Assembly: GCA_964016885.1 (NCBI GenBank)
Contig: OZ024758.1
Coordinates: forward strand, 21,762,001 to 21,826,000
Reading direction: 5' to 3'
Source: Eledone cirrhosa
Lineage: Eukaryota
DNA: 64,000 bases
Shown here: positions 1,801-43,239 of the stretch, piece by piece
How the letters are laid out: the number at the start of each line of letters is the position of its first letter
How positions within the stretch are numbered: the stretch's first letter is position 1
Made by a program: the position numbers and the translations under genes
Notes under the pieces: model-generated
What the model saw: only the letters and a program-made list of their open reading frames with translations
Databases searched by the model: none
What the model was told of the DNA's origin: nothing

Positions 1801-2098
1801 GTAAGAATATTTTCGAAACAGCGAGTGGGTTTGAAATTATTAGAAATGTAAGCTATCGCCGTATTTTGACTAAAGAAATTAAAGAAATTATTTAGCCTGA
1901 TAGTGGGGTTAAGAACCCTCGGAGAAATGGAAAAAGATGAGTATTGACGCACATACTCATCTTTTTCCATTTCTCCGAGGGTTCTTAACCCCACTATCAG
2001 GCTAAATAATTTCTTTAATTTCTTTAGTCAAAATACGGCGATAGCTTACATTTCTAATAATTTCAAACCCACTCGCTGTTTCGAAAATATTCTTACAT
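1799..2098. repeat. Perfect fold-back palindrome between (TA)n tracts
   Basis: Arms 1799-1944 and 1953-2098 (146 bp) are reverse complements around an 8-nt loop; no HHR core found. Confidence 0.92.
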
Positions 2099-2109
2099 AT
2101 ATATATATA

Positions 2110-2531
2110 TAATATAAGATCAAAAAATGGTTAAAAGAGTTCCAAGTATTTTATTATGCGCATTTCAAAAACAAATATCATCATAAGATGATATCTGCGT
2201 TTTCATCAGATAAAATAGGGATACATGATATGAAGGTTAAAAAACACTTGTGAATAGTGAAGTTTTAAATCAACATATATATGTTGATTTAAATGTTGAT
2301 TTAAAACTTCACTATTCACAAGTGTTTTTTAACCTTCATATCATGTATCCCTATTTTATCTGATGAAAACGCAGATATCATCTCATGATGATATTTGTTT
2401 TTGAAATGCGCATAATAAAATACTTGGAACTCTTTTAACCATCTTTTGATCTTATATTATTTATACTCCAGTCCTACAAACTGTAGAGTGTTACTTATCC
2501 GATATTTGCATTGCTTTATTGTGCTACAATA
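2110..2531. mobile_element. HHR hairpin element, family A (Penelope-type pLTR remnant)
   Basis: Inverted arms ~2110-2276 and ~2293-2459; right arm extends ~70 nt further; flanked by (TA)n; second copy at 25650-26060. Confidence 0.8.
2352..2422 (+). ncRNA. Type I hammerhead ribozyme (family A); mirror copy on - strand at 2147-2217
   Basis: TATTTTAT-CTGATGA-[16-bp stem II AAACGCAGATATCATC/GATGATATTTGTTTTT]-GAAA-TGCGCA-TA-ATAAAATA; perfect 8-bp stem I; palindromic stem III ATGCGCAT. Confidence 0.88.
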
Positions 2532-2558
2532 TATAAATATATATATATATATATATAT

Positions 2559-2972
2559 GCAAAAGTTCTATTTAAAGTTGTTGGGATACAACAAGTAAAT
2601 ATTTTTACAACTGATATAAAGCACTCGACAAGTTTTTGGAGTAGATATACGATATTAATAAATGGAAACTATATTTATAAAACCATATTTATTTGATTAT
2701 ACATATTTCAGGGATTCCACAATAAATTATGGTATGCCTTCATCAGACAAAATACAATATATAACAGTTTTACAAATAGCTTTGACGTACCCTTTTAAAA
2801 TACAACCATTACTTTTGGAGGCTGTCTGGATAGTCAAAGCTATTTGTAAAACTGTTATATATTGTATTTTGTCTGATGAAGGCATACCATAATTTAATGT
2901 GGTATCCCTGAAATATGTATAATGAAATAAATATGGTTTTATAAATATAGTTTCCATTTATTAATATCGTAT
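2559..2972. mobile_element. HHR hairpin element, family B
   Basis: Arms ~2647-2786 and ~2833-2972; left arm extends ~90 nt further to 2559; (TA)n on both sides. Confidence 0.8.
2865..2929 (+). ncRNA. Type I hammerhead ribozyme (family B); mirror copy on - strand at 2690-2754
   Basis: TATTTTGT-CTGATGA-AGGCATACCA..TGGTATCCCT-GAAA-TATGTA-TA-ATGAAATA. Confidence 0.85.
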
Positions 2973-2993
2973 ATATATATATATATATATATA

Positions 2994-3375
2994 TTGGTGT
3001 GATCCTGTCTAATATATATATATATATATATATATATTGGTGTGATCCTGTCTAATATATATATATATATATATATATATTGGTGTGATCCTGTCTAATA
3101 TATATATATATATATATATATTGGTGTGATCCTGTCTAATATATATATATATATATATATATATTGGTGTGATCCTGTCTAATATATATATATATATATA
3201 TATTGGTGTGATCCTGTCTAATATATATATATATATATATATATTGGTGTGATCCTGTCTAATATATATATATATATATATATATATTGGTGTGATCCTG
3301 TCTAATATATATATATATATATATATTGGTGTGATCCTGTCTAATATATATATATATTGGTGTGATCCTGTCTAA
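2994..3375. repeat. 10 copies of TTGGTGTGATCCTGTCTAA separated by variable (TA)n
   Basis: Units start at 2994, 3037, 3080, 3121, 3164, 3203, 3244, 3287, 3326, 3357. Confidence 0.95.
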
Positions 3376-5970: not shown

Positions 5971-6482
5971 ACAATTCTTCTCAAACACACATACATTTAC
6001 AGAAAGACACACATACACATACACATAGACATACACTCACACACAGCGTAGCAAATGGACGCCAGCTGCTGTTTTGCAATAGTCTTTTCACCATCCCCTT
6101 CCTTCTTTTTACACACACATACATTCACACAAACACACACATTGTGGGACAGATGGAAGTCGCTCAAATTTATATATAGATTATTGATACTTTGTGTAAC
6201 TAGGCTCTTAGAATAATTGTACTTTGCACTATCTCCCTGCGTGTCATAAGGGGTGACTAAAAGGGTTGGCGTCAAGGCGTATAGCTCTGCTATTATAAAA
6301 ACAAAAGCCTGTTCCAAACCGTGTCAGCATAGTGTAAAACCGATGATGATGATGACAACTGATCTGTTTATACCTGCAGGGAATAATTATTCCTATTTTC
6401 AAGATGTCTAATGATGTGGTATCAGATTGATGGCTCTTCAGAAATAAGCATTAAAAAATTGATAAATATATAAATAATATAA

Positions 6483-6873
6483 ATAATTGTTTCTACGTTT
6501 GGCTCAAGGCCAGCAATTATCCCAGTGTATTACTGGTACTTTATTTTACCGACCCCGTAAAGATGAAAGGCATAGTTAACCTCGGCAGGATTTGAACTCA
6601 GATCATAAAAGGCCGTAACTCTATGCTGCAAATAATGGTGTCCGCCCCTCTACCGATACTGCCAATCCACCGCCTACTGCCATGTAAATAATTGTTTCTA
6701 CTTCAGGCACAAGGCCAGCAAATACCCAGTGCATTACTGGTACTTTATTCTATCGACCCCGCAAGGATGAAAGGCAAAGTCAACCTCGGCGGGATTTGAA
6801 CTCAGATCATAAAGGGACGTAACTATGCTGGAAAGCACGGCGTCCGACCCTCCACCGATACTGGCAATCCACC
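6483..6873 (-). mobile_element. Two tandem main-family SINEs
   Basis: Full copies at ~6483-6674 and ~6688-6873 with A/B boxes and shared body. Confidence 0.88.
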
Positions 6874-7501
6874 ATGTAAATATTATACATAATATAGACT
6901 TCATTAATGTCCAGTTAGTTACCCGTAGGGTTCATTCAGTAGAATAAGGATGTTGTCTATTTCTACAAAGAGAAACTGATTTTATGTTCAATAAAAACAG
7001 ATGCTTTTGCTACTTATGAAATTGAGATCTGAAGCTAGAAGTTGACAACAGTCAAATAATCGATTAAGGACGAAATAAAATAAAGACGTTGGCAAAACTA
7101 TCCTGGAAGCACTTAACGTCTAAGAAGTGACCATTGAGTCATACTTTGTATCAATATCTTTATGGTTAATACTTGGACTGCACTGTCTTCTCATATAACC
7201 AACCAGACAGATAAATCACTTTTGCTTTATTCAAAAGTATATTACAAATAATTTTTTAAAGAAACCAACGAGAAGATATATAGATTACAATGAGTCCGAG
7301 GTAGCACATCTTAATGACTTTTTCAATGGCGCAGTCATTGTCGTTTGCTGTTACTGTTACCTATTTCTCGATAGCAATTCAATGCAACATCGATTCAATA
7401 TATTATCAATAAGTTTCTTCTCGCAACAACACGTACACCTATGGCTACTGACACATACGTTCAGACACGCGCACACACACACAGACACACACACACACAT
7501 G

Positions 7502-7533
<32 letters not shown>

Positions 7534-7652
7534 CATACATGTGTGTGTCTTTATATAGAGAGAGAAAGAGAGAGAAAGTGTGAGATACATATATACATGT
7601 CTGTATGTATGTATATATATATATATATATATATTTATATAGACAGAGAGAC

Positions 7653-7768
<116 letters not shown>

Positions 7769-8675
7769 TACATATATACATGTCTGTATGTATATATATA
7801 TATATATATATATTTATATAGACAGAGAGACATTTATATATGTATATATATAATATATATATGTGTGTGGGGGGTACGTAGGGAGATAGATGGATAGATA
7901 GATAGATAGATAGATAGATAGGTTTATGGCTTTGAAATTCTCAATACTGAATAGTGCTGGACATTACTTATACGTTGAAAGATATTGTAGCTTACACATT
8001 TCTTTTAATTACGTTAGCAGCAATACAAATAAAACCGTGTGAATAATTTCGTTCGGTATCACAGATGGTAATTGAGGAATTCATTGTTACTTTATGACAA
8101 TATATTTGGCTGCTTATTCTAACAGTTATCGTAAATGTTGAGTTAAGTCAGCTAAAAAGTGAAAATTATATGAAAACGGAGATATATTTATATGGAACTA
8201 ACTAACCTAATATACGAACAAGAGAGAAGAAGAATAGAGTTTTAAAATGCATTAAGCCTGAGAGTTTTCTTAAAAGAAGGGAAAAAGGTCTGGAAAGTTT
8301 GAATGTATGTCTTCTAAAATGTATTAGCGACATAAGTAATGGCGCCAGTGATGAATCGAAACCCAATTGCAACTTCGATTTCCCTATAATATCTCGTTTC
8401 ATTCTAGGTATATAGGAATATAAATAACAACGCACTCACGCAAATATGTTTATCTCGGAATTTAGCAACCATTTTTTTTATCTTTTTTTTTTCTTATTTA
8501 TTCACTGCTATTAGCTGTTCTAAGCGTTGTACAAGAGAGGTGGGTGGAGGAAAGAGAGAGAGGGAGAGAGAGCAAAACAAGAGTGAGTGAGATAAAGAAA
8601 GAGGCAAGGGAGAAAGAGCGGGTGAGAGACATTGAGAGAGAGAGAAAGACAAATATAATATATATATAAAGGCAA

Positions 8676-8748
<73 letters not shown>

Positions 8749-8753
<5 letters not shown>

Positions 8754-9194
8754 TATCCACGGTAAGGTGTGGGGTCTATTCTGCATGAAGAACTCAATGT
8801 AATCCATATGTTGAAAATGTTCTAGGTTAAGATAAATCCCGGAAAACAATACAACATTAAAATATCAAGTCATTAGAGATATACTTCACTGCTTTACGAT
8901 CGTTTCTAGATGATGATAATACATTGTAACTATACTTCGTCATTGATCTATGTAAGGTTAGTTACAAAATATCAGATAAAGAGAATATTTACTTACATGC
9001 ATATCACAAAGCAATGTGGTGATATGCATGTGTGATATGCATGTAAGTAAATATTCTCTGTATCTGATATTTTGTAACTAACCTTACATATATCAATAAC
9101 GAAGCATAGCTACAATGTATTATCATCATCTAGAAACGATCGTAAAGCAGTGAAGTATATTTCTAATGATTTGATTTTTATTTCATTGTTTTAA

Positions 9195-9197
<3 letters not shown>
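8749..9197. mobile_element. Asymmetric fold-back element between (TA)n, partial HHR-like motif
   Basis: Arms ~8858-9008 and ~9031-9180; left side ~100 nt longer; GAAA-CGATCG-TA (palindromic ACGATCGT) in each arm, but no CTGANGA. Confidence 0.65.
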
Positions 9198-10416: not shown

Positions 10417-12160
10417 TATAGACCACTATCTGTTTTGCTATCTTTCCTTTAAATCATATCATAAAACTGGTCTCTGTTAGACTGCATAAATCTCATGATA
10501 TAGACCACTATCTGTAAATAAGTGATATTTGTAAGTGAAGTTTAACGATATCAACAACTGCAACGAGATCACTTTATCACTGGCGTTTATTTTGATATCT
10601 GTTGATATCTTTCCTTTAAATTATACCCTAAAACTGGTCTCTGTAAGACTGCACAAATCCCATAATATAATACTATAGACTACTATCTGTAAATAAGTGA
10701 TATTTGTTAGTGAGGTTTAACGATATCAATAGCGACAATGAGATCACTTTATCATTGATGATTGTTTTGATCATTTTTTTATATCTTTCCTTTAAATTAT
10801 ACCCTAAAACGGGTCTCTGGAAGATTGCACAAACCCCATGATATAGACCACTATCTGTAAATAAATGGTATTTGTTAGTGAGGTTTAACGATATCAACAG
10901 CAACAACGAATTCACTTTATCATTGATAATTGTTTTGAAATCTTTAGATATCTTTCCTTTAAATCCTACCCTAAAACGGGTCTCTGGAAGACTGCACAAA
11001 CCCCATGATATAGACCACTATCTGTAAATAAATGGTATTTGTTAGTGAGGTTTAACGATATCAACAGCAACAACGAGTTCACTTTATCATTGATAATTGT
11101 TTTGAAATCTTTAGATATCATTCCTTTAAATCCTACCCTAAAACGGGTCTCTGGAAGACTGCACAAACCCCATGACATAGACCAATATCTGTAAATAAAT
11201 GGTATTTGTTAGTGGGTTTTAACGATATCAACAGCAACAACGAGTTCACTTTATCATTGATAATTGTTTTGATATCTTTTGATATCTTTCCTTTAAATCC
11301 TACCCTAAAACGGGTCTCTGGAAGACTGCACAAACCCCATGATATAGACCACTATCTGTAAATAAATGGTATTTGTTAGTGAGGTTTAACGATATCAACA
11401 GCAACAACGAGTTCACTTTATCATTGATAATTGTTTTGAAATCTTTAGATATCTTTCCTTTAAATCCTACCCTAAAACGGGTCTCTGGAAGACTGCACAA
11501 ACCCCATGATATAGACCACTATCTGTAAATAAATGGTATTTGTTAGTGGGGTTTAACGATATCAACAGCAACAACGAATTCACTTTATCATTGATAATTG
11601 TTTTGAAATCTTTAGATATCTTTCCTTTAAATCCTACCCTAAAACGGGTCTCTGGAAGACTGCACAAACCCCATGATATAGACCACTATCTGTAAATAAA
11701 TGGTATTTGTTAGTGGGTTTTAACGATATCAACAGCAACAACGAGTTCACTTTCTCATTGATAATTGTTTTGATATCTTTTGATATCTTTCCTTTAAATC
11801 CTACCCTAAAACGGGTCTCTGGAAGACTGCACAAACCCCATGATATAGACCACTATCTGTAAATAAATGGTATTTGTTAGTGGGTTTTAACGATATCAAC
11901 AGCAACAACGAGTTCACTTTCTCATTGATAATTGTTTTGATATCTTTTGATATCTTTCCTTTAAATCCTACCCTAAAACGGGTCTCTGGAAGACTGCACA
12001 AACCCCATGATATAGACCACTATCTGTAAATAAATGGTATTTGTTAGTGGGGTTTAACGATGTCAACAGCAGCAACAAGATTACTCTATCACTGGTGATT
12101 GTTATGATATCTCTTGATATCTTTCCTTTAAATCATACCATAAAACTGTCTCTGTTAGAC
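10417..12160. repeat. 167-bp tandem satellite, ~10 copies
   Basis: Repeated ORFs spaced exactly 167 bp apart (11133, 11300, 11467, 11634, 11801); homogeneous centre, diverged edges. Confidence 0.95.
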
Positions 12161-12559
12161 TAACATGCCTCTAGCAACACCTCATGAAGATGAACTTTTC
12201 GGTCGTTATCAAACGATCCAATAGGTTATGTCAGTTGCACTTTGTATGAACACAAAGAAACCATAAAAGAGAACTGCTTCAAGATATTGTCACATATAAA
12301 TGACCAAAGTCTTTTAATTTACCAAAAGCCAGTAAAACTTAATATGATGGCCGCCATAATGATAAATATTATCCATCATGATCATTGCAATTATAGTAAT
12401 TAATATTTGTTTTATATTATTATTAACCATCGTCATCATCATGTCATCGTCGTCGTTGTCGTCATCATCATGTCATCGTCGTCGTTGTCGTCATCAGAAG
12501 AAGAATTAGCACCACAGCAATGATTCAGACTTTTCTTAATGTTTCAGATGATTTTTTTG

Positions 12560-18701: not shown

Positions 18702-19272
18702 GGGAGGAGGTTATAGTTCACTTGAAGCATTGTGTAATGAGGTATAAACGTTAGAATATGTGTAATAAGGCCAAGACAATGCAGATATGGACATAGAAAA
18801 AGAATGCAATAGTGAGAGATATTGATGAGAATTCGTCTTTCACCTTGAATTTATTTAAATGTCCTTAATTTTCGAGATAATATCTCTTCTTCGGAGGGAA
18901 GTAAAAGTCTCAGACCAGCGTCTAAATTTCCAATGAAGCCATGCTGACCGGAAATAGTATAGAGTTCTAACTTTAATATCAAAGAATTAAAATTAGGTGG
19001 GTAAAGAGTAGTCTCCCTTTAAGAGGGGTTTGTTTATGTTTTTGTTGTGTTTTTTAAATTTTATATGCGTGCCTGTATATGTGTGTGGGAGAAAGCATGA
19101 AGGTGTAGGTATGTGTGTGTGTGAGTGTGGGAAGATAGGTCTAATCGTAAAAGTGGGGGGTAGGTGTTATCTGGTGTTAGAACTGGTTTTGTGTGTGTAT
19201 GTGTGAGAGAGAATAAGTGGAGGTGTGTGCGTGCGTGTGTGTGGGGTGTGTAAAGTGGGGCTAGAGGCCCTA

Positions 19273-20204
19273 TCAGGTTATAAATTGGGTGTTGAGCTCT
19301 AGTCTATTATTGATTGGTGGATGTGTTCTATCTATAATGAGTGCTTCCTTGATTCTAAGATTACCGAGGTTTCTTTCTTTAGTTTCTATCCTAACTGTTA
19401 TGTTTTTATCAGTGTTTTTGCATTTAACTAGGTGTTTCTTAAATGAGGAAGCGTTAGTATTGAGGTGTTCTTGTATTCTTATGTGGAGTGGTCTGGTGGT
19501 GCTACCTACGTAGAAGTTGTTGCATTTGTCACACTCTAGTCTGTAAACTACGTAAGCCTGGTGGCATAGGTCTGTGTCGTTGATGGGGCAGTTGGCTAGT
19601 CTGCAGCAGTTGTCATGTCTGGTGGAGTGTCTCTTAGCTAGCCGTCCACGCAAAGAAGGACCCGAATGGGCCAGTTGAATATCCAGACCTTCTCGTCTGA
19701 TGGCTCTGCGGATGGCTGTTGTTGTTTCTTCACTGAAGTGTGGGAGCTTCAGGAAGCAAGTGTTAGTGCCTCGGGTGTGGTGTCCTCTGTTCTTTCTGGC
19801 ACGGTTTGTGGTGGATGTCGTGTATCCGTTCAGTTTGAGTACTTCCAGGAAATGTGTGGTGTGTGTGTCTCGGTCTCTGGCGTCGGTGCATTTGTTCTTG
19901 ATACGTGCCAGTTCGTTCTTTATGTATCCGAACTTGGCACCGAGTGGGAGGGCCGATCTGAAATGTACGAACAGGTCCCTGCTGGCGGATTTTTTATAGA
20001 AGCAGGTGTGGATGTTGCCTTCCTCTGTTACCCTGAGTTGGAAGTCCAGCAGGGATAGGGATCCGCGGTCATCGGGGTGTTCTATGCTGAACTTTATACT
20101 GGCGTCCATGCTGGAGAATGTTGTGTATATTTTCTCTGCCTCTTCACGGGATGATGTAAGGATGAGTATGTCATCTACATATCGGGTGAAGAAGGCATGG
20201 GAAT
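19273..20204 (-). CDS. 5'-truncated Penelope ORF: RT C-terminal/thumb region + GIY-YIG endonuclease (open frame)
   Basis: RYVDDI, IKFSIEH, LSLLDFQL, Cys-rich linker CRLANCPINDTDLC, VVYRLECDKCNNFYVGSTTRPLHIRIQEH, KEALII, INNRLE. Confidence 0.9.
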
Positions 20205-22416
20205 ACCACCACCGCCGAGACTACGAGAAAAAACGCCTAACACAAAAATTTCTCAAACTCAGGACGGCCAACTGTCTTAACAACATCCCAACGCCAAACA
20301 CCAACAGAGGCGAACAATACGTTACCAACACCGAACCTAGCGGCACCCCGACCAACAACACACCTGACGCAAAACACCTCGTCACAGACTTGACAGGATC
20401 CCCTCTCCCGAGAGGAATTAGACCTCCTCAGCCTGGGTCCCAAGTTCATATTGAAACAGAGACTGGACGACAGACTATGGCTCGACATAGAAACGAATTT
20501 CTGTCGAGCTGCCTACCAACTGAAATGGATATCGACTCTCGACAACAACACCACGGAATCCACCACACCCAGATTCCCCGATATACCAACTAGATCGCCC
20601 ACTCTATCCACCGCCCGCCACCGCGAGCTGGAAGATAAACTCTCGAGACTAAAACATTCCGTATTTAACATCTTACGGAAACAGAAGAGATGGCCCCTAA
20701 CCTCTCCAGGACACAACAACTCGCCCTGAAGAACCTACGGAATAAGGAACTTATTTACTTACCATCCGACAAAGGTAAAGAGTTCTGCGTCATCTCTCAA
20801 GCCACATACAATAACCTAGCCTTCGAACACCTAAGCGACAGTGAACTGTACACAGTGATCCCGGACATGACCGCAGCCCAAATCGAAAAACAGACCAACT
20901 CCATTTGGTTCGATATCTGTAGGAGAAGACAACTCCCGAATAAAATTAAACTCAACTACACCACTAGAAATAGCAGACTGCCCACTTTCTACCACCTCAT
21001 CAAGACCCACAAGAATAGCACTAAGACGCATATAAGACCCATCGTCTCTAGCATAGAAGGACCCCTATACAAAAATTTCCTGGCTTCTCTCCCAGGTCCT
21101 CAAGCCTCTACTCTCCACCTTCCCCGGACATGTCAGTAGCTCCGACGAAGTTATACGTAGATTACACCAACTCCAGCCAGAACAACTTAAACTTAATAAA
21201 TACGCTTTTAGCCTCGACGTTGTCTCCCTCTACACTACAGTCCCCGCTCACCCAGCTGTCGATTTATTGACGGACTGCGTGGTCGCAGAGAACATCCACT
21301 GCTACGGCCTCCACCCGACGGACATACACCAACTTTTGTCCTTCACAGTAGACAACACGTACTTCACCTTCCACCACCACACATACAGACAGACAACAGG
21401 ATTACCCATGGGATCCAGCCTCTCTGGCCTGCTGGCCATCACTTACATGAACCAGCTAGAATGCCGAGCCCTCAACACCTGCCATTCCCATGCCTTCTTC
21501 ACCCGATATGTAGATGACATACTCATCCTTACATCATCCCGTGAAGAGGCAGAGAAAATATACACAACATTCTCCAGCATGGACGCCAGTATAAAAGTTC
21601 AGCATAGAACACCCCGATGACCGCGGATCCCTATCCCTGCTGGACTTCCAACTCAGGGTAACAGAGGAAGGCAACATCCACACCTGCTTCTATAAAAAAT
21701 CCGCCAGCAGGGACCTGTTCGTACATTTCAGATCGGCCCTCCCACTCGGTGCCAAGTTCGGATACATAAAGAACGAACTGGCACGTATCAAGAACAAATG
21801 CACCGACGCCAGAGACCGAGACACACACACACACACATTTCCTGGAAGTACTCAAACTGAACGGATACACGACATCCACCACAAACCGTGCCAGAAAGAA
21901 CAGAGGACACCACACCCGAGGCACTAACACTTGCTTCCTGAAGCTCCCACACTTCAGTGAAGAAACAACAACAGCCATCCGCAGAGCCATCAGACGAGAA
22001 GGTCTGGATATTCAACTGGCCCATTCGGGTCCTTCTTTGCGTGGACGGCTAGCTAAGAGACACTCCACCAGACATGACAACTGCTGCAGACTAGCCAACT
22101 GCCCCATCAACGACACAGACCTATGCCACCAGGCTTACGTAGTTTACAGACTAGAGTGTGACAAATGCAACAACTTCTACGTAGGTAGCACCACCAGACC
22201 ACTCCACATAAGAATAAAAGAACACCTCAATACTAACGCTTCCTCATTAAGAAACACCTAGTTAAATGCAAAAACACTGATAAAAACATAACAGTTAGGA
22301 TAGAAACTAAAGAAAGAAACCTCGGTAATCTTAGAATCAAGGAAGCACTCATTATAGATAGAACACATCCACCAATCAATAATAGACTAGAGCTCAACAC
22401 CCAATTTATAACCTGA
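20205..22416 (+). pseudogene. Penelope RT + GIY-YIG ORF, 5'-truncated, several frameshifts (some possibly sequencing errors)
   Basis: YLPSDKG, PTFYHLIKTHK, IRPIVS, FSLDVVSLYTTVP, YRQTTGLPMGSSLS, RYVDDI, VVY..YVGST spread across frames. Confidence 0.9.
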
Positions 22417-22793
22417 TAGGGCCTCTAGCCCCACTTTACACACCCCACACACACGCACGCACACACCTCCACTTATTCTCTCTCACACATACACACACAA
22501 AACCAGTTCTAACACCAAATAACACCTACCCCCCACTTTTACGATTAGACCTATCTTCCCACACTCACACACACACACATACCTACACCTTCATGCTTTC
22601 TCCCACACACATATACAGGCACGCATATAAAATTTAAAAAACACAACAAAAACATAAACAAACCCCTCTTAAAGGGAGACTACTCTTTACCCACCTAATT
22701 TTAATTCTTTGATATTAAAGTTAGAACTCTATACTATTTCCGGTCAGCATGGCTTCATTGGAAATTTAGACGCTGGTCTGAGACTTTTACTTC

Positions 22794-22828
22794 CCTCCGA
22801 AGAAGAGATATTATCTCGAAAATTAAGG
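22794..22828 (+). ncRNA. Minimal variant HHR in the Penelope 3' UTR; mirror copy on - strand at 18863-18897
   Basis: CCT-CCGAAGA-A-GAGATA.TATCTC-GAAA-AT-TA-AGG; U4C core variant, palindromic stem III AATT, 3-bp stem I. Confidence 0.6.
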
Positions 22829-22984
22829 ACATTTAAATAAATTCAAGGTGAAAGACGAATTCTCATCAATATCTCTCACTATTGCATTCTTTTCTATGTC
22901 CATATCTGCATTGTCTTGGCCTTATTACACATATTCTAACGTTTATATATTATATATGTATATATATATATATATATATATGTC

Positions 22985-25649: not shown

Positions 25650-26060
25650 GAGTTTTATTGTAGTACAATAAAGCAATGCAGATATCGGATAAGAAGCACT
25701 CTACAGTTTGTGGGAGTGGAGTATACATAATATATAAGATCAAAAGATGGTTAAAGGAGTTCCATGTATTTTATTATGCGCATTTCAAAAACAAACATCA
25801 TCATGCAATAATATTTGTGTTTTCATCAGATAAAACAGGAGAACATGATATGAAGGCTAAAAAACACTTGTGGATAGTGCAGTGGATAGTGCAGTTGATT
25901 TAAAACTGCACTATCCACAAGTGTTTTTTAGCCTTCATATCATGTTCTCCTGTTTTATCTGATGAAAACACAAATATTATTGCATGATTATGTTTGTTTT
26001 TGAAATGCGCATAATAAAATACATGGAACTCCTTTAACCATCTTTTGATCTTATATTATA
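25650..26060. mobile_element. HHR hairpin element, family A, copy 2; HHRs at 25767-25837 (-) and 25951-26021 (+)
   Basis: TGTTTTAT-CTGATGA-long stem II-GAAA-TGCGCA-TA-ATAAAATA; left arm is the longer one here. Confidence 0.85.
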
Positions 26061-27385: not shown

Positions 27386-27450
27386 TATTTTATTATATAT
27401 ATTTCAAGGGCGACAAAGCCAATTTTGGTGCACTTTCATCAGATAAAATA
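27386..27450 (-). ncRNA. Family B HHR in a single-arm copy (~27253-27500)
   Basis: TATTTTAT-CTGATGA-AAGTGCACCAAA..TTTGTCGCCCTT-GAAA-TATATA-TA-ATAAAATA. Confidence 0.8.
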
Positions 27451-32347: not shown

Positions 32348-32408
32348 TATTTTATTATACGTATTTCAAGGGTACTAATATTTTAGTACGCTTTCGTCAG
32401 ATAAAATA
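32348..32408 (-). ncRNA. Family B-like HHR
   Basis: TATTTTAT-CTGACGA-AAGCGTACTAA..TTAGTACCCTT-GAAA-TACGTA-TA-ATAAAATA; palindromic ATACGTAT. Confidence 0.85.
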
Positions 32409-32579: not shown

Positions 32580-32645
32580 TATTTCATTATACATATTTCA
32601 GGGATACCATATTAGAAATATGGCATGCCTTCTTCAGATAAAATA
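32580..32645 (-). ncRNA. Family B HHR
   Basis: TATTTTAT-CTGAAGA-AGGCATGCCATAT..ATATGGTATCCCT-GAAA-TATGTA-TA-ATGAAATA. Confidence 0.85.
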
Positions 32646-32699: not shown

Positions 32700-33420
32700 A
32701 TACAGATCGAAACTTAAGCTGATCAATAGCGAAACGCTATATACAGATCGAACCTTGAGATGATCAATAGCGAAACACGCGTCACCACTCAATAAGCGTA
32801 ATGAAGCAGACAGAAGTTTCACGCTGTTGACGATCATCAGAGCAACTTACTCCCCGCTTTCGCCGAAGATTATAGAAGCTGGATTCTTATAGAATTCCAG
32901 TAATAATCAGGAGCTGATTATACAGAGAGATTGCCAGTCCAGCAAAAATTAAGTATTAGCAATGGTGCTCTGAAATAGCGATGTATACATGAATGTATGT
33001 ATAGTATATTTGGCAATATACCGTATGTTTAATTATTAACATTTTGAACACCATACGCTATCAGTTTTAAAGCGGTGACTATGTCACTTCTTTTCTTCTA
33101 ATTTGTTGCTGGACATGCAATCGCTCTGTATAATCAGCTCCTGATTATTACTTGAATTCTATAAGAATCCAGCTTCTATATTCTTCGGCGAAAGCGAGGA
33201 GTACGTTGCGCTGATGATCGCCAACAGCGTGAAACAGACAGTTTGTTAGCTTCTCTCCCTTCTTTCGCCGAAGAAAAGAAGTGACATAGTCACTGCTTTA
33301 AAACTGATAGCGTATGGTCTTCCATTTTTTTTTTAATTAAGCATGCAGTATATTGCCAAATATACTATACATACATTCATATATAAATCGGTATTTCAGA
33401 ACAGCACCAATCCTAATACC
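32700..33420. mobile_element. Family C HHR element: permuted head-to-head pair
   Basis: + strand reads A(33098-)-HHR-B(-33418); - strand reads B(33097-32954)-A(32953-)-HHR; flanked by (TA)n. Confidence 0.75.
33183..33273 (+). ncRNA. Family C type I HHR with extended stem I
   Basis: CTGATGA at 33211, stem II CGC/GCG, GAAA at 33231, outer helix CTTCGGCGAAAG/CTTTCGCCGAAG (12 bp). Confidence 0.7.
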
Positions 33421-37345: not shown

Positions 37346-37546
37346 CAACTAGAAATTGATTAACATATAAATAAACATATGAAACAATCACAGGGGATAA
37401 TTTTTACAAGTGTGTAAGCACACATAGCTAGGTAGGTAACTAAATATAGTTAACTAGAACTTCAAAAATAGGTACCTTATAGTATATATTGTCTTTGCAC
37501 CACTCCCCTTCACACTCTCGGAACTCTTTTCCTGTCCACTTTTCTC

Positions 37547-37574
37547 CTGATGAAGGGCTTATGCCCGAAACGTC
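37547..37574 (+). ncRNA. Minimal HHR core, family E (stem I lost)
   Basis: CTGATGA-A-GGGC-TTAT-GCCC-GAAA-CG-TC; palindromic ACGT. Confidence 0.7.
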
Positions 37575-37711
37575 ATCCCCCCCCCCCCCTCCCGCCTTCG
37601 TTAAGACGCTCTTCCTGCTATATCAAGCGTTAACCTAATATATACCTTCCCTATACTGTACCGGTTGTGTTGTTATTTCTGTTTACCTTTTACATACATA
37701 TATATATACAC

Positions 37712-38270
37712 TATTAATAAATGGAAACTATATTTATAAAACCATATTTATTTCATTATATATATTTCAAGGATACCAAGTTAAATCATGGTATGCCTTC
37801 ATCAGACAAAATACAATATATAACAGTTTTACTGTTATATATTGTATTTATTGTTTTACTGTTATATATTGTATTTTGTCTGATGAAGGCATACCATGAT
37901 TTAACTTGGTATCCTTGAAATATATATAATGAAAGAAATATGGTTTTATAAATATAGTTTCCATTTATTAATACTGTATATCTACTCCAAATATTTGTCG
38001 AGTGCTTTATATCAGTTATAATAATTGTTTCTACTTTAGGCACAAGGCCAGCAATAATTACAGTGCATTACTGGTACTTTATTTTATCGACCCCGTAAGG
38101 ATGAAAGGCAAAGTTAACCTCGGCGGGATTTGAACTCAGATCATAAAGGGAGGTAACTCTATGCTTCAAAGCATGGCGTCCGACCCTTACCGATACTGCC
38201 AATCCACCGCCCTATATCAGTTATAATAATATTTGCTTGTTGTATCCCAACAATTTAAATAGAACTTTTG
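37712..38270. mobile_element. HHR hairpin element, family B; HHRs at 37749-37813 (-) and 37872-37936 (+)
   Basis: Inverted arms ~37712-37827 and ~37858-37973; long right arm interrupted by a SINE; stem III ATATATAT. Confidence 0.85.
38026..38212 (-). mobile_element. Full-length main-family SINE with TSD
   Basis: TATATCAGTTATAATAAT at 38008-38025 and 38213-38230. Confidence 0.92.
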
Positions 38271-40407: not shown

Positions 40408-40472
40408 TATTTCATTATACATATTTCAAAGACACCAAAGCAAATTATGGTGCGCTTTCATCAGATAAAATA
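40408..40472 (-). ncRNA. Family B HHR in a single-arm copy (~40276-40550)
   Basis: TATTTTAT-CTGATGA-AAGCGCACCA..TGGTGTCTTT-GAAA-TATGTA-TA-ATGAAATA. Confidence 0.82.
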
Positions 40473-43203: not shown

Positions 43204-43239
43204 TCTTCTGATGAAGGACTAGCGTCCGAAACGTTAAGA
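43204..43239 (+). ncRNA. Minimal type I HHR, family E
   Basis: TCTT-CTGATGA-A-GGAC-TAGC-GTCC-GAAA-CG-TT-AAGA; element 43145-43328 lies between (TA)n. Confidence 0.82.

Follow-up and report, generated by a model that had tools for sequence, protein, structure and literature searches.

A hammerhead motif with a long stem II and a palindromic stem III in Eledone cirrhosa: a probable dimer ribozyme of putative Hydra-clade Penelope-like elements

Introduction

At positions 2352-2422 of the stretch of DNA analyzed here (64,000 nucleotides from Eledone cirrhosa, hereafter the window) lies a hammerhead motif with a long stem II and a stem III that reads as a palindrome. The locus raises the question whether such a motif cuts alone or in pairs, and whether the different palindromes of its relatives act as family-specific dimerization codes, as an earlier note on this DNA had suggested. 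Palindromic stems III and dimer cleavage are already published for the hammerheads of Penelope-like elements (PLEs), namely in passages of PMC4209133 and PMC6765202 and in the legend of Fig S8 of PMC3088659. The PLE hammerheads known so far show little activity in vitro, which bears on whether and why they must dimerize. The genome analyzed here represents a natural test series with strong stems, about 60,000 copies and intact young full-length elements, with G.U intermediates connecting its four stem III states and with sister subfamilies distinguished solely by stem I and the core pair 3-8.

Results and Discussion

The hammerhead and its surroundings

The hammerhead at 2352-2422 is real. Its stem I consists of 8 bp (UAUUUUAU at 2352-2359 paired with AUAAAAUA at 2415-2422), the core is formed by CUGAUGA at 2360-2366 and GAA at 2403-2405, and the 36 nt of stem II provide 15 bp in total; A2414 is the predicted cleavage position (Table 1). 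Two characteristics of a type I hammerhead are present, the core CUGANGA ... GAAA with A15.1-U16.1 and an NUH site as well as three helices with stem I open, the latter with covariation support; positions follow the general hammerhead numbering. The fold has a z-score of -2.56, and equal stability was reached in 1 of 200 shuffled sequences. A scan of the whole window with Rfam at the gathering score returned no hammerhead match, and with E-values up to 5 the region 2000-3100 gave hairpin-type chance matches only and no hammerhead.

The motif belongs to a divergent pair of family A ends, of which it forms one arm. As its own partner copy is located on the opposite strand, the locus is unable to form a homodimer in cis, and a read-through RNA of the pair (2104-2535) would contain the sense ribozyme together with its antisense, forming a long hairpin. 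The nearest neighbor on the same strand is a B(UG) ribozyme 513 nt downstream.

Directly beside the A pair, at 1797-2098, we observed a near-perfect inverted pair with (TA)n flanks, in which no hammerhead core was found and which is probably the end of another PLE family. At 2104-2965 and among the matches listed on contig C1, different PLE families are stacked in the same (TA)n tracts, with A, B and other ends clustered within 1 kb.

Table 1. Positions of the hammerheads and associated elements in the window
Feature	Position	Strand	Remarks
Type I hammerhead, family A	2352..2422	+	Pattern scan and fold; predicted cleavage between 2414 and 2415
Stem II of this hammerhead	2367..2402	+	A10.1-U11.1; 3 bp, C.U mismatch (2370/2399), 12 bp, 4-nt loop
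Palindromic stem III AUGCGCAU	2406..2413	+	Dimer: 8-bp duplex; monomer: 2 bp and tetraloop
5'-truncated 3' pLTR, putative Hydra-clade PLE family A, long end	2290..2535	+	Ends in (TA)n
Inverted partner arm, family A short end	2104..2279	-	Own hammerhead at 2147-2217, minus strand
Family B hammerhead AUAUGUAU	2865..2929	+	Pattern scan, fold
Inverted pair of family F pLTR ends	8749..9197	.	ACGAUCGU at 8896-8903 and 9136-9143; 5' core missing in both arms
Minimal hammerhead of canonical PLE	22794..22828	+	CCGAAGA core, 3-bp stem I, AAUU
Second divergent pair, family A hammerheads	25767..26021	.	25767-25837 minus, 25951-26021 plus; pattern scan
Family B hammerhead AUAUAUAU	27386..27450	-	Pattern scan
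Family B hammerhead AUACGUAU	32348..32408	-	Pattern scan
Family B hammerhead AUAUGUAU	32580..32645	-	Pattern scan
Divergent pair, family B hammerheads AUAUAUAU	37749..37934	.	Pattern scan
Family B hammerhead AUAUGUAU	40408..40472	-	Pattern scan
Family E hammerhead, ordinary minimal PLE type	43204..43239	+	Extra A, G10.1-C11.1, stem III ACGU

Conservation of the palindromes

The scan of the window yielded 4 hammerheads of family A, 7 of family B and 1 of family E, and the octamers listed in the earlier note were recovered in these 12, which bears out its claim of a palindromic stem III in the three families. If the search is extended to the genome, the combined A and B pattern matches 55,216 times compared to 0 times for the reversed control pattern, and 52,800 of these matches (95.6%) carry one of four self-complementary octamers. 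Palindromy is therefore kept genome-wide, where its loss would have spoken against a dimer. With one pattern, in which the octamer alone was varied, we counted 18,945 matches for AUAUGUAU, that is B(UG), 17,258 for AUGCGCAU of family A, and 16,110 and 487 for the family B octamers AUAUAUAU and AUACGUAU, respectively. The two mismatching octamers counted, AUACAUAU (53 matches) and AUACGCAU (108), are rare and scattered over subfamilies; the remaining 2,255 matches lie outside the four palindromes and these two variants.

We considered CpG decay as the origin of the B octamers and rejected it, given the abundance of AUAUGUAU compared to AUACAUAU and the low count of AUACGUAU. That AUACGCAU, which occurred three times in our first sample, represents an amplified non-palindromic subfamily was rejected as well, its scattered copies having several stem II types.

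The four octamer states are linked through G.U steps, and self-complementarity is kept by 3-4 out of 18 single changes of an octamer. In an alignment sample of 218 distinct copies (63 A, 105 B, 21 F1 and 29 F2, the A set being enriched for near-identical copies) stem III is self-complementary including its central pair in 206 copies. The central pair is CG, UA or UG, and AU in family F. Since it is impossible in the monomer, its conservation points to an intermolecular helix, and the rarity of the two non-pairing stem III variants counted favors the double-hammerhead dimer. One must keep in mind that the copy counts reflect few source elements, so that the independent changes number about ten and not thousands. 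Three public contig sets from two organisms contain 13 common variants inside 2352-2422. All nine of these that affect stems keep the pairing, which 25 of the 46 possible transitions would do, and the other four are at N7 or in the loop; for 2394-2423 no common variant is listed in the three sets.

The mismatch in stem II and family F

Stem II of the sampled copies has a peculiarity. While positions 10.2, 10.3, 10.5 and 10.6 are paired in 95-100% of the 218 copies, 10.4-11.4 is unpaired in 217, with a C opposite a pyrimidine in 211, and no terminal loop 2 occurs at the usual distance. Loop 2 is probably replaced by this mismatch at stem II position 4, which may take over its part in docking stem I. 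A mismatch in this role would allow the distal part of stem II to lengthen, from 6 bp up to about 100 nt. The pair G10.1-C11.1, which commonly but not always forms the base of stem II, is absent from all 218 copies of A, B and F, and its absence may lower the activity. At this position we found A-U in 63 out of 63 copies of A, A-U in 85 and A.C in 20 out of 105 copies of B, and C.A in 50 out of 50 copies of F; published Hydra hammerheads often have U.U at 10.1-11.1 according to passages of PMC8557442.

Family F takes the lengthening of stem II furthest. Its pattern matches the genome 5,057 times compared to 2 times for the control pattern, and complete copies have a 9-bp stem I and a core that leads into 99-108 nt of stem II, after which come GAA, ACGAUCGU and A. 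The palindrome noted earlier at 8749-9197 is thus present as ACGAUCGU in both arms, but the 5' core is lost there and the complete ribozyme is found in other copies. Among the 100 F matches listed, 68 have C3-G8, 30 have U3-A8 and 2 are mixed at the core pair, and N7 varies within the U3-A8 group. Between F1 and F2 stem I is compensated at two columns, and 93.8% of the alignment cells are paired compared to 27-60% in slid controls. This covariation counts as a single event, the divergence of two subfamilies from each other. In the consensus fold by RNAalifold, stem I of F was recovered and the long stem II was not, as F1 and F2 align poorly there; the stem II rod was drawn from single folds with z-scores of -0.7 to -5.4 in 6 of 44 copies tested.

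The minimal PLE hammerheads described in passages of Cervera and de la Pena 2014 (PMC4209133) and by Lunse, Weinberg and Breaker as cited in PMC6765202 share several features with the present ones. They are of type I and reside in pLTRs, have a palindromic helix III with a proposed dimer, an enlarged helix II (7-8 bp in theirs) and the U3-A8 core variant, and occur in opposite-strand pairs 100-700 bp apart. Compared to the description in PMC4209133, stem I is longer here (8-9 bp compared to 4-5), stem III has 8 nt, stem II has 21-36 nt in A and B or 99-108 nt in F, G10.1-C11.1 is missing, and the C.pyrimidine mismatch at 10.4-11.4 is conserved. In the Hydra hammerheads of File S2 of PMC8557442, as far as its entries were covered, stem II measures 3-7 bp, and stem III has 3-4 bp with a loop of 1-3 nt. 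Our literature search, with most subscription journals outside its scope, returned no paper on families A, B or F, no PLE hammerhead whose stem II approaches 100 nt, no mismatch at 10.4 and no heterodimer specificity, although Lunse et al. may bear on heterodimers; the passages of PMC13282606 that were covered mention neither hammerheads nor ribozymes nor Hydra. The long-armed design, with a stem II of up to about 100 nt in the sister family F, and the C.pyrimidine mismatch at stem II position 4 therefore both look new. The long-stem subtype and the size of its expansion are the interesting part of our results.

If a stem II of about 100 nt together with a conserved mismatch in place of loop 2 is true, the hammerhead consensus would become wider and the Rfam misses would be explained. 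The catalytic-core descriptor quoted in PMC8557442 allows a spacer of 7-17 nt, and cases with 35-50 nt are called "half core" in the passage concerned; some of these published PLE cases could then be long-stem ribozymes. A more far-reaching proposal is a hammerhead subtype in which the mismatch replaces the loop 2 contact, the rod of about 100 nt in F has a role of its own, and stems I and III sort the co-resident A, B, F1 and F2 into exclusive pairing classes kept apart by selection against cross-cleavage. We regard this combination as a doubtful one, to be entertained tentatively. The family F hammerhead with its 99-108-nt stem II and 3-8 covariation merits its own treatment.

Monomer and dimer folds

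All dimer energies given here are nearest-neighbor estimates without tertiary contacts or Mg2+. For family A the minimum of the cofold is exactly the active double hammerhead at -43.7 kcal/mol, with the stem I strands swapped between the partners, and lies 11.5 kcal/mol below two monomer minima. The A monomer has its minimum at -16.1 kcal/mol and its active fold at -11.9 kcal/mol, i.e. 4.2 above. The cofold minimum of F2 is likewise the active double hammerhead, at -77.0 kcal/mol and 11.4 kcal/mol below two monomer minima. In three types of family B the active dimer is found 0.7-8 kcal/mol above the cofold minimum, it is the predicted minimum in none of the five B copies folded, and for B(UA) it lies 3.0 kcal/mol above two monomer minima. 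The predicted support for a dimer is weaker for B than for A. Taken together, covariation and folding support dimerization through a palindromic stem III, an idea which is old and well supported here.

The earlier note had assumed that stem III of the monomer could close a loop of 0-2 nt only. This is not forced, as 2 bp with a 4-nt loop can be drawn, which is the usual metazoan design. Invertebrate hammerheads with good cleavage as monomers often have a stem III of this kind, according to passages of PMC7229834. The motif might thus be cleaved efficiently as a monomer with a stem III of 2-3 bp, aided by the long stems and by a tertiary contact at the C.pyrimidine mismatch, the palindromy being a leftover of a short hairpin. 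Stems I and II are indeed much stronger than in minimal PLE hammerheads, and the mismatch is kept in nearly all sampled copies. We nevertheless consider this reading unlikely. The central pair is complementary in every amplified octamer, the active A monomer does not coincide with the monomer minimum, and tens of thousands of active copies would be expected to cut host transcripts.

Discrimination between families

Penalties for heterodimers were calculated in kcal/mol relative to the mean of the two homodimers. Between A and B they amount to +5.2 for B(UG), +6.7 for B(CG) and +11.6 for B(UA); within B they are -0.5 for UG with UA, -1.3 for UG with CG and +4.7 for UA with CG. Pairs of A or B with F are penalized by more than +30, and F1 with F2 by +14.1.

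The penalties between A and B, between A or B and F and between B(UA) and B(CG) would agree with palindromes that are selected family-specific codes, allowing cleavage solely between copies of one family. In favor of such a code is also that (TA)n is a common target of the families, which do insert close together on one strand. For pairs less than 6 kb apart in the first 100 C1 matches we counted 30 divergent pairs of the same class, 6 same-strand pairs of the same class, 3 same-strand pairs of A with B and 6 others, and in the window A and B are neighbors as described above. Several observations stand against a strict code, and we think it very improbable. In a tree of 95 B copies with stem III left out, the UA label changes at least 5 times and the UG label at least 6 times on well-supported branches; AUAUAUAU and AUAUGUAU have switched at least 5 times within B, and separate clades of B share the same octamer. 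AUAUGUAU can form a full duplex with each of the two other B octamers, making B(UG) a hub. F1 and F2 have the octamer ACGAUCGU in common and are told apart by stem I, which is nearly identical in A and B. The heterodimer of A with B(UG) is at -30.5 kcal/mol still marginally favorable, slightly below two separate monomer folds (-28.9). Finally, no code is needed for the pairing of two pLTRs in cis. The strict version put forward in the earlier note is therefore not supported, and a family code holds merely in a coarse sense, discrimination being predicted between the broad classes A, B, F1 and F2.

Carrier elements

A search with the 171-nt arm of family A gave 1,193 candidates in the 3.0-Gb genome, the best 40 of which were scored as mostly 98-100% alike. 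Several A copies have about 1.1 kb of 3' UTR upstream, followed by an endonuclease reading frame. Locus L074 (G000:C1:12244300-12254200) is a full tandem with two 554-nt direct repeats that are 96% alike and contain one hammerhead each, on the same strand, 3709 nt apart and around the ORF. Between its two pLTRs the minus strand (6271-8664) encodes an uninterrupted Hydra-type RT-endonuclease of 798 aa. Pfam gave no match in this ORF (protein P0001), so that such elements are easily missed in annotation. Further pLTR-ORF-pLTR tandems were found for A (L184, L185), B (L075, L189, L190) and F (L182), those of B and F with broken reading frames. The hammerheads of full-length tandems are spaced 3.3-4.1 kb around the RT-endonuclease ORF and thus provide the second same-strand copy of a double hammerhead, which is absent at the 2352-2422 locus. 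No short tandem of the same subfamily was found among the 100 matches listed.

Judged by motif traits and by an alignment with published proteins made by eye, the carriers of A, B and F appear to be Hydra-clade PLEs. In their proteins DKT replaces DKG (SDKTNNLY in A and B, SDKTGNLY in F, DKS in one B copy), the RWK position reads RWI in A and RWR in B and F, and the CxCX5C linker, CxxC and CxH occur without CCHH. The N-terminal half lines up with Hydra-1_Obim in the comparison by eye, and (TA)n insertion, the pLTR tandem and the inverted 5' partner are all found as well. This is in agreement with passages of Craig et al. 2021 (PMC8557442), which give for the Hydra clade DKT, an RW motif, the CxCX5C linker, CxxC and CxH, no CCHH, (TA)n targets, a hammerhead near the 3' end and inverted 5' partners. 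The same passages describe units under about 3 kb, compared to 3.3-4.1 kb here; being "generally shorter than 3 kb" is a descriptive trait and not a diagnostic one. They give no copy numbers for the clade, whereas about 60,000 matches were found here, and the Hydra-1_Obim hammerhead as given there matches none of A, B and F. The RT part of A is 53-55% identical to that of B and about 50% to that of F. There are 37 relatives with 28-41% identity, which are unnamed or poorly named, and the same search gave one match from Argonauta.

A classification as non-autonomous retrozyme or MITE was rejected since A, B and F turned out to be what is left of coding elements after truncation, namely their ends. 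Family A, as a truncated end of a coding element, also differs from the non-coding head-to-tail repeats of 150-450 bp which make up a non-LTR retrozyme. A comparison with such systems is nonetheless of interest. According to passages of PMC7229834 and of bioRxiv 10.64898/2026.07.22.740005, the newt and axolotl satellites, the ASBVd double hammerheads and the non-LTR retrozymes have in common with our motif a weak stem III with a palindromic loop, a higher activity as dimers and a very high copy number (126,247 in axolotl). The density is about 20 per Mb here compared to about 4.5 per Mb for axolotl in the figures of the same two sources. The retrozyme-type systems are described in them as non-coding tandem repeats of 150-450 bp with contacts between loop 1 and loop 2, whereas here we find dispersed ends of coding elements that are mostly single or inverted.

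With respect to the 5' ends of inserted copies, none is at the cleavage site among 57 copies of A (whose starts are biased by the query) and none exactly there for F1 or F2 (the F1 list being swamped by microsatellite matches); two out of 60 B copies start within 3 nt of it. Inserted copies run at least 53 nt past the cut site, so their template was uncut or religated there. In family A a CATATG located about 125 nt upstream of the cut site is the starting point of 11 out of 25 copies. For family F we observed, at loci L152-L181, that the 5' end of 16 out of 28 pattern-sampled copies falls in the 5' strand of stem I, no more than about 10 nt from the core, and five of these 16 are joined to the tail of another common repeat through ATTATT. 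The F starts near the core and the A starts at CATATG may mark a transcription start or a site of fold-back priming.

Mechanistic considerations

The motif at 2352-2422, predicted to be self-cutting, probably works in pairs. The reading we favor, and hold to be rather probable, is that it is the pLTR hammerhead of Hydra-clade PLEs with a predicted activity as double hammerhead. Following established models, in a transcript of the type pLTR-ORF-pLTR the two palindromes would form an 8-bp duplex, and the stem I strands would swap between the two halves so that each cuts the site of the other. The double cut would release a unit-length RNA. Reverse transcription into (TA)n may then be preceded by ligation of this RNA to a circle, or the RNA may be copied uncut; the extension of copies past the cut site fits a circular or an uncut template. 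The lone or inverted copies, which are the great majority, would be largely uncut for want of a same-strand twin, and the dimer requirement could act as a two-key switch. The differences between the palindromes may have arisen by drift through G.U intermediates, and the coarse incompatibility of A, B, F1 and F2 through stems III and I might be a by-product of this rather than a code for each family. A point in favor of the double hammerhead is that compensatory changes have kept stem III self-complementary including its central pair. A point against it is the distance of 3.5 kb that the two hammerheads of one RNA have to bridge in order to meet.

One might also assume that the fold is conserved as a signal by which the protein of the element recognizes it or its transcription starts, cleavage being marginal. 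A very low in vitro activity is reported for metazoan PLE hammerheads in passages of PMC4209133, Naiad PLEs spread without canonical hammerheads according to passages of PMC8557442, and the accumulation of truncated F 5' ends near the core suggests another role for that spot. The catalytic positions are fixed, however, whereas all four letters are found at N7 in B, and the change from C3-G8 to U3-A8 affects both bases together, which is the pattern expected of selection on a catalytic fold. We find a mere signal highly unlikely and keep the double hammerhead as our working model.

Further hammerheads and repeats of the window

The AATT palindrome attributed in the earlier note to an autonomous element does belong to a hammerhead with AAUU, but its element at about 18750-22950 is a canonical PLE with DKG, CCHH and an inverted 5' arm. 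As a possible autonomous partner of A and B it was rejected, being of a different clade and with a different ribozyme. It has 1,067 candidates in the genome, the best 40 of which were scored as 99-100% alike, and is young; its hammerhead has C at core position 4 in 12 out of 12 copies printed.

Tandem arrays of 167, 122, 183 and 175 nt are located at 10433-12161, 51592-53253 and 53527-55211, the last two consisting of a common dispersed repeat. Pattern scans found no hammerhead in these arrays, and the inverted-repeat scan of the window was swamped by (TA)n. The plus strand at 46917-49556 has a stop-to-stop frame of 879 aa with visible RT motifs, which belongs to a non-LTR retrotransposon. At 37540-37580 an E-like hammerhead with stem III ACGU was observed, in which a run of C interrupts the 3' strand of stem I. 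A further repeat with CUGAUGA ... GAAACAG occurs at 32780-32870 (minus), at 33200-33250 (plus) and at locus L027. It resembles published Hydra hammerheads with a 9-nt stem III, and its copies in the window look degenerate.
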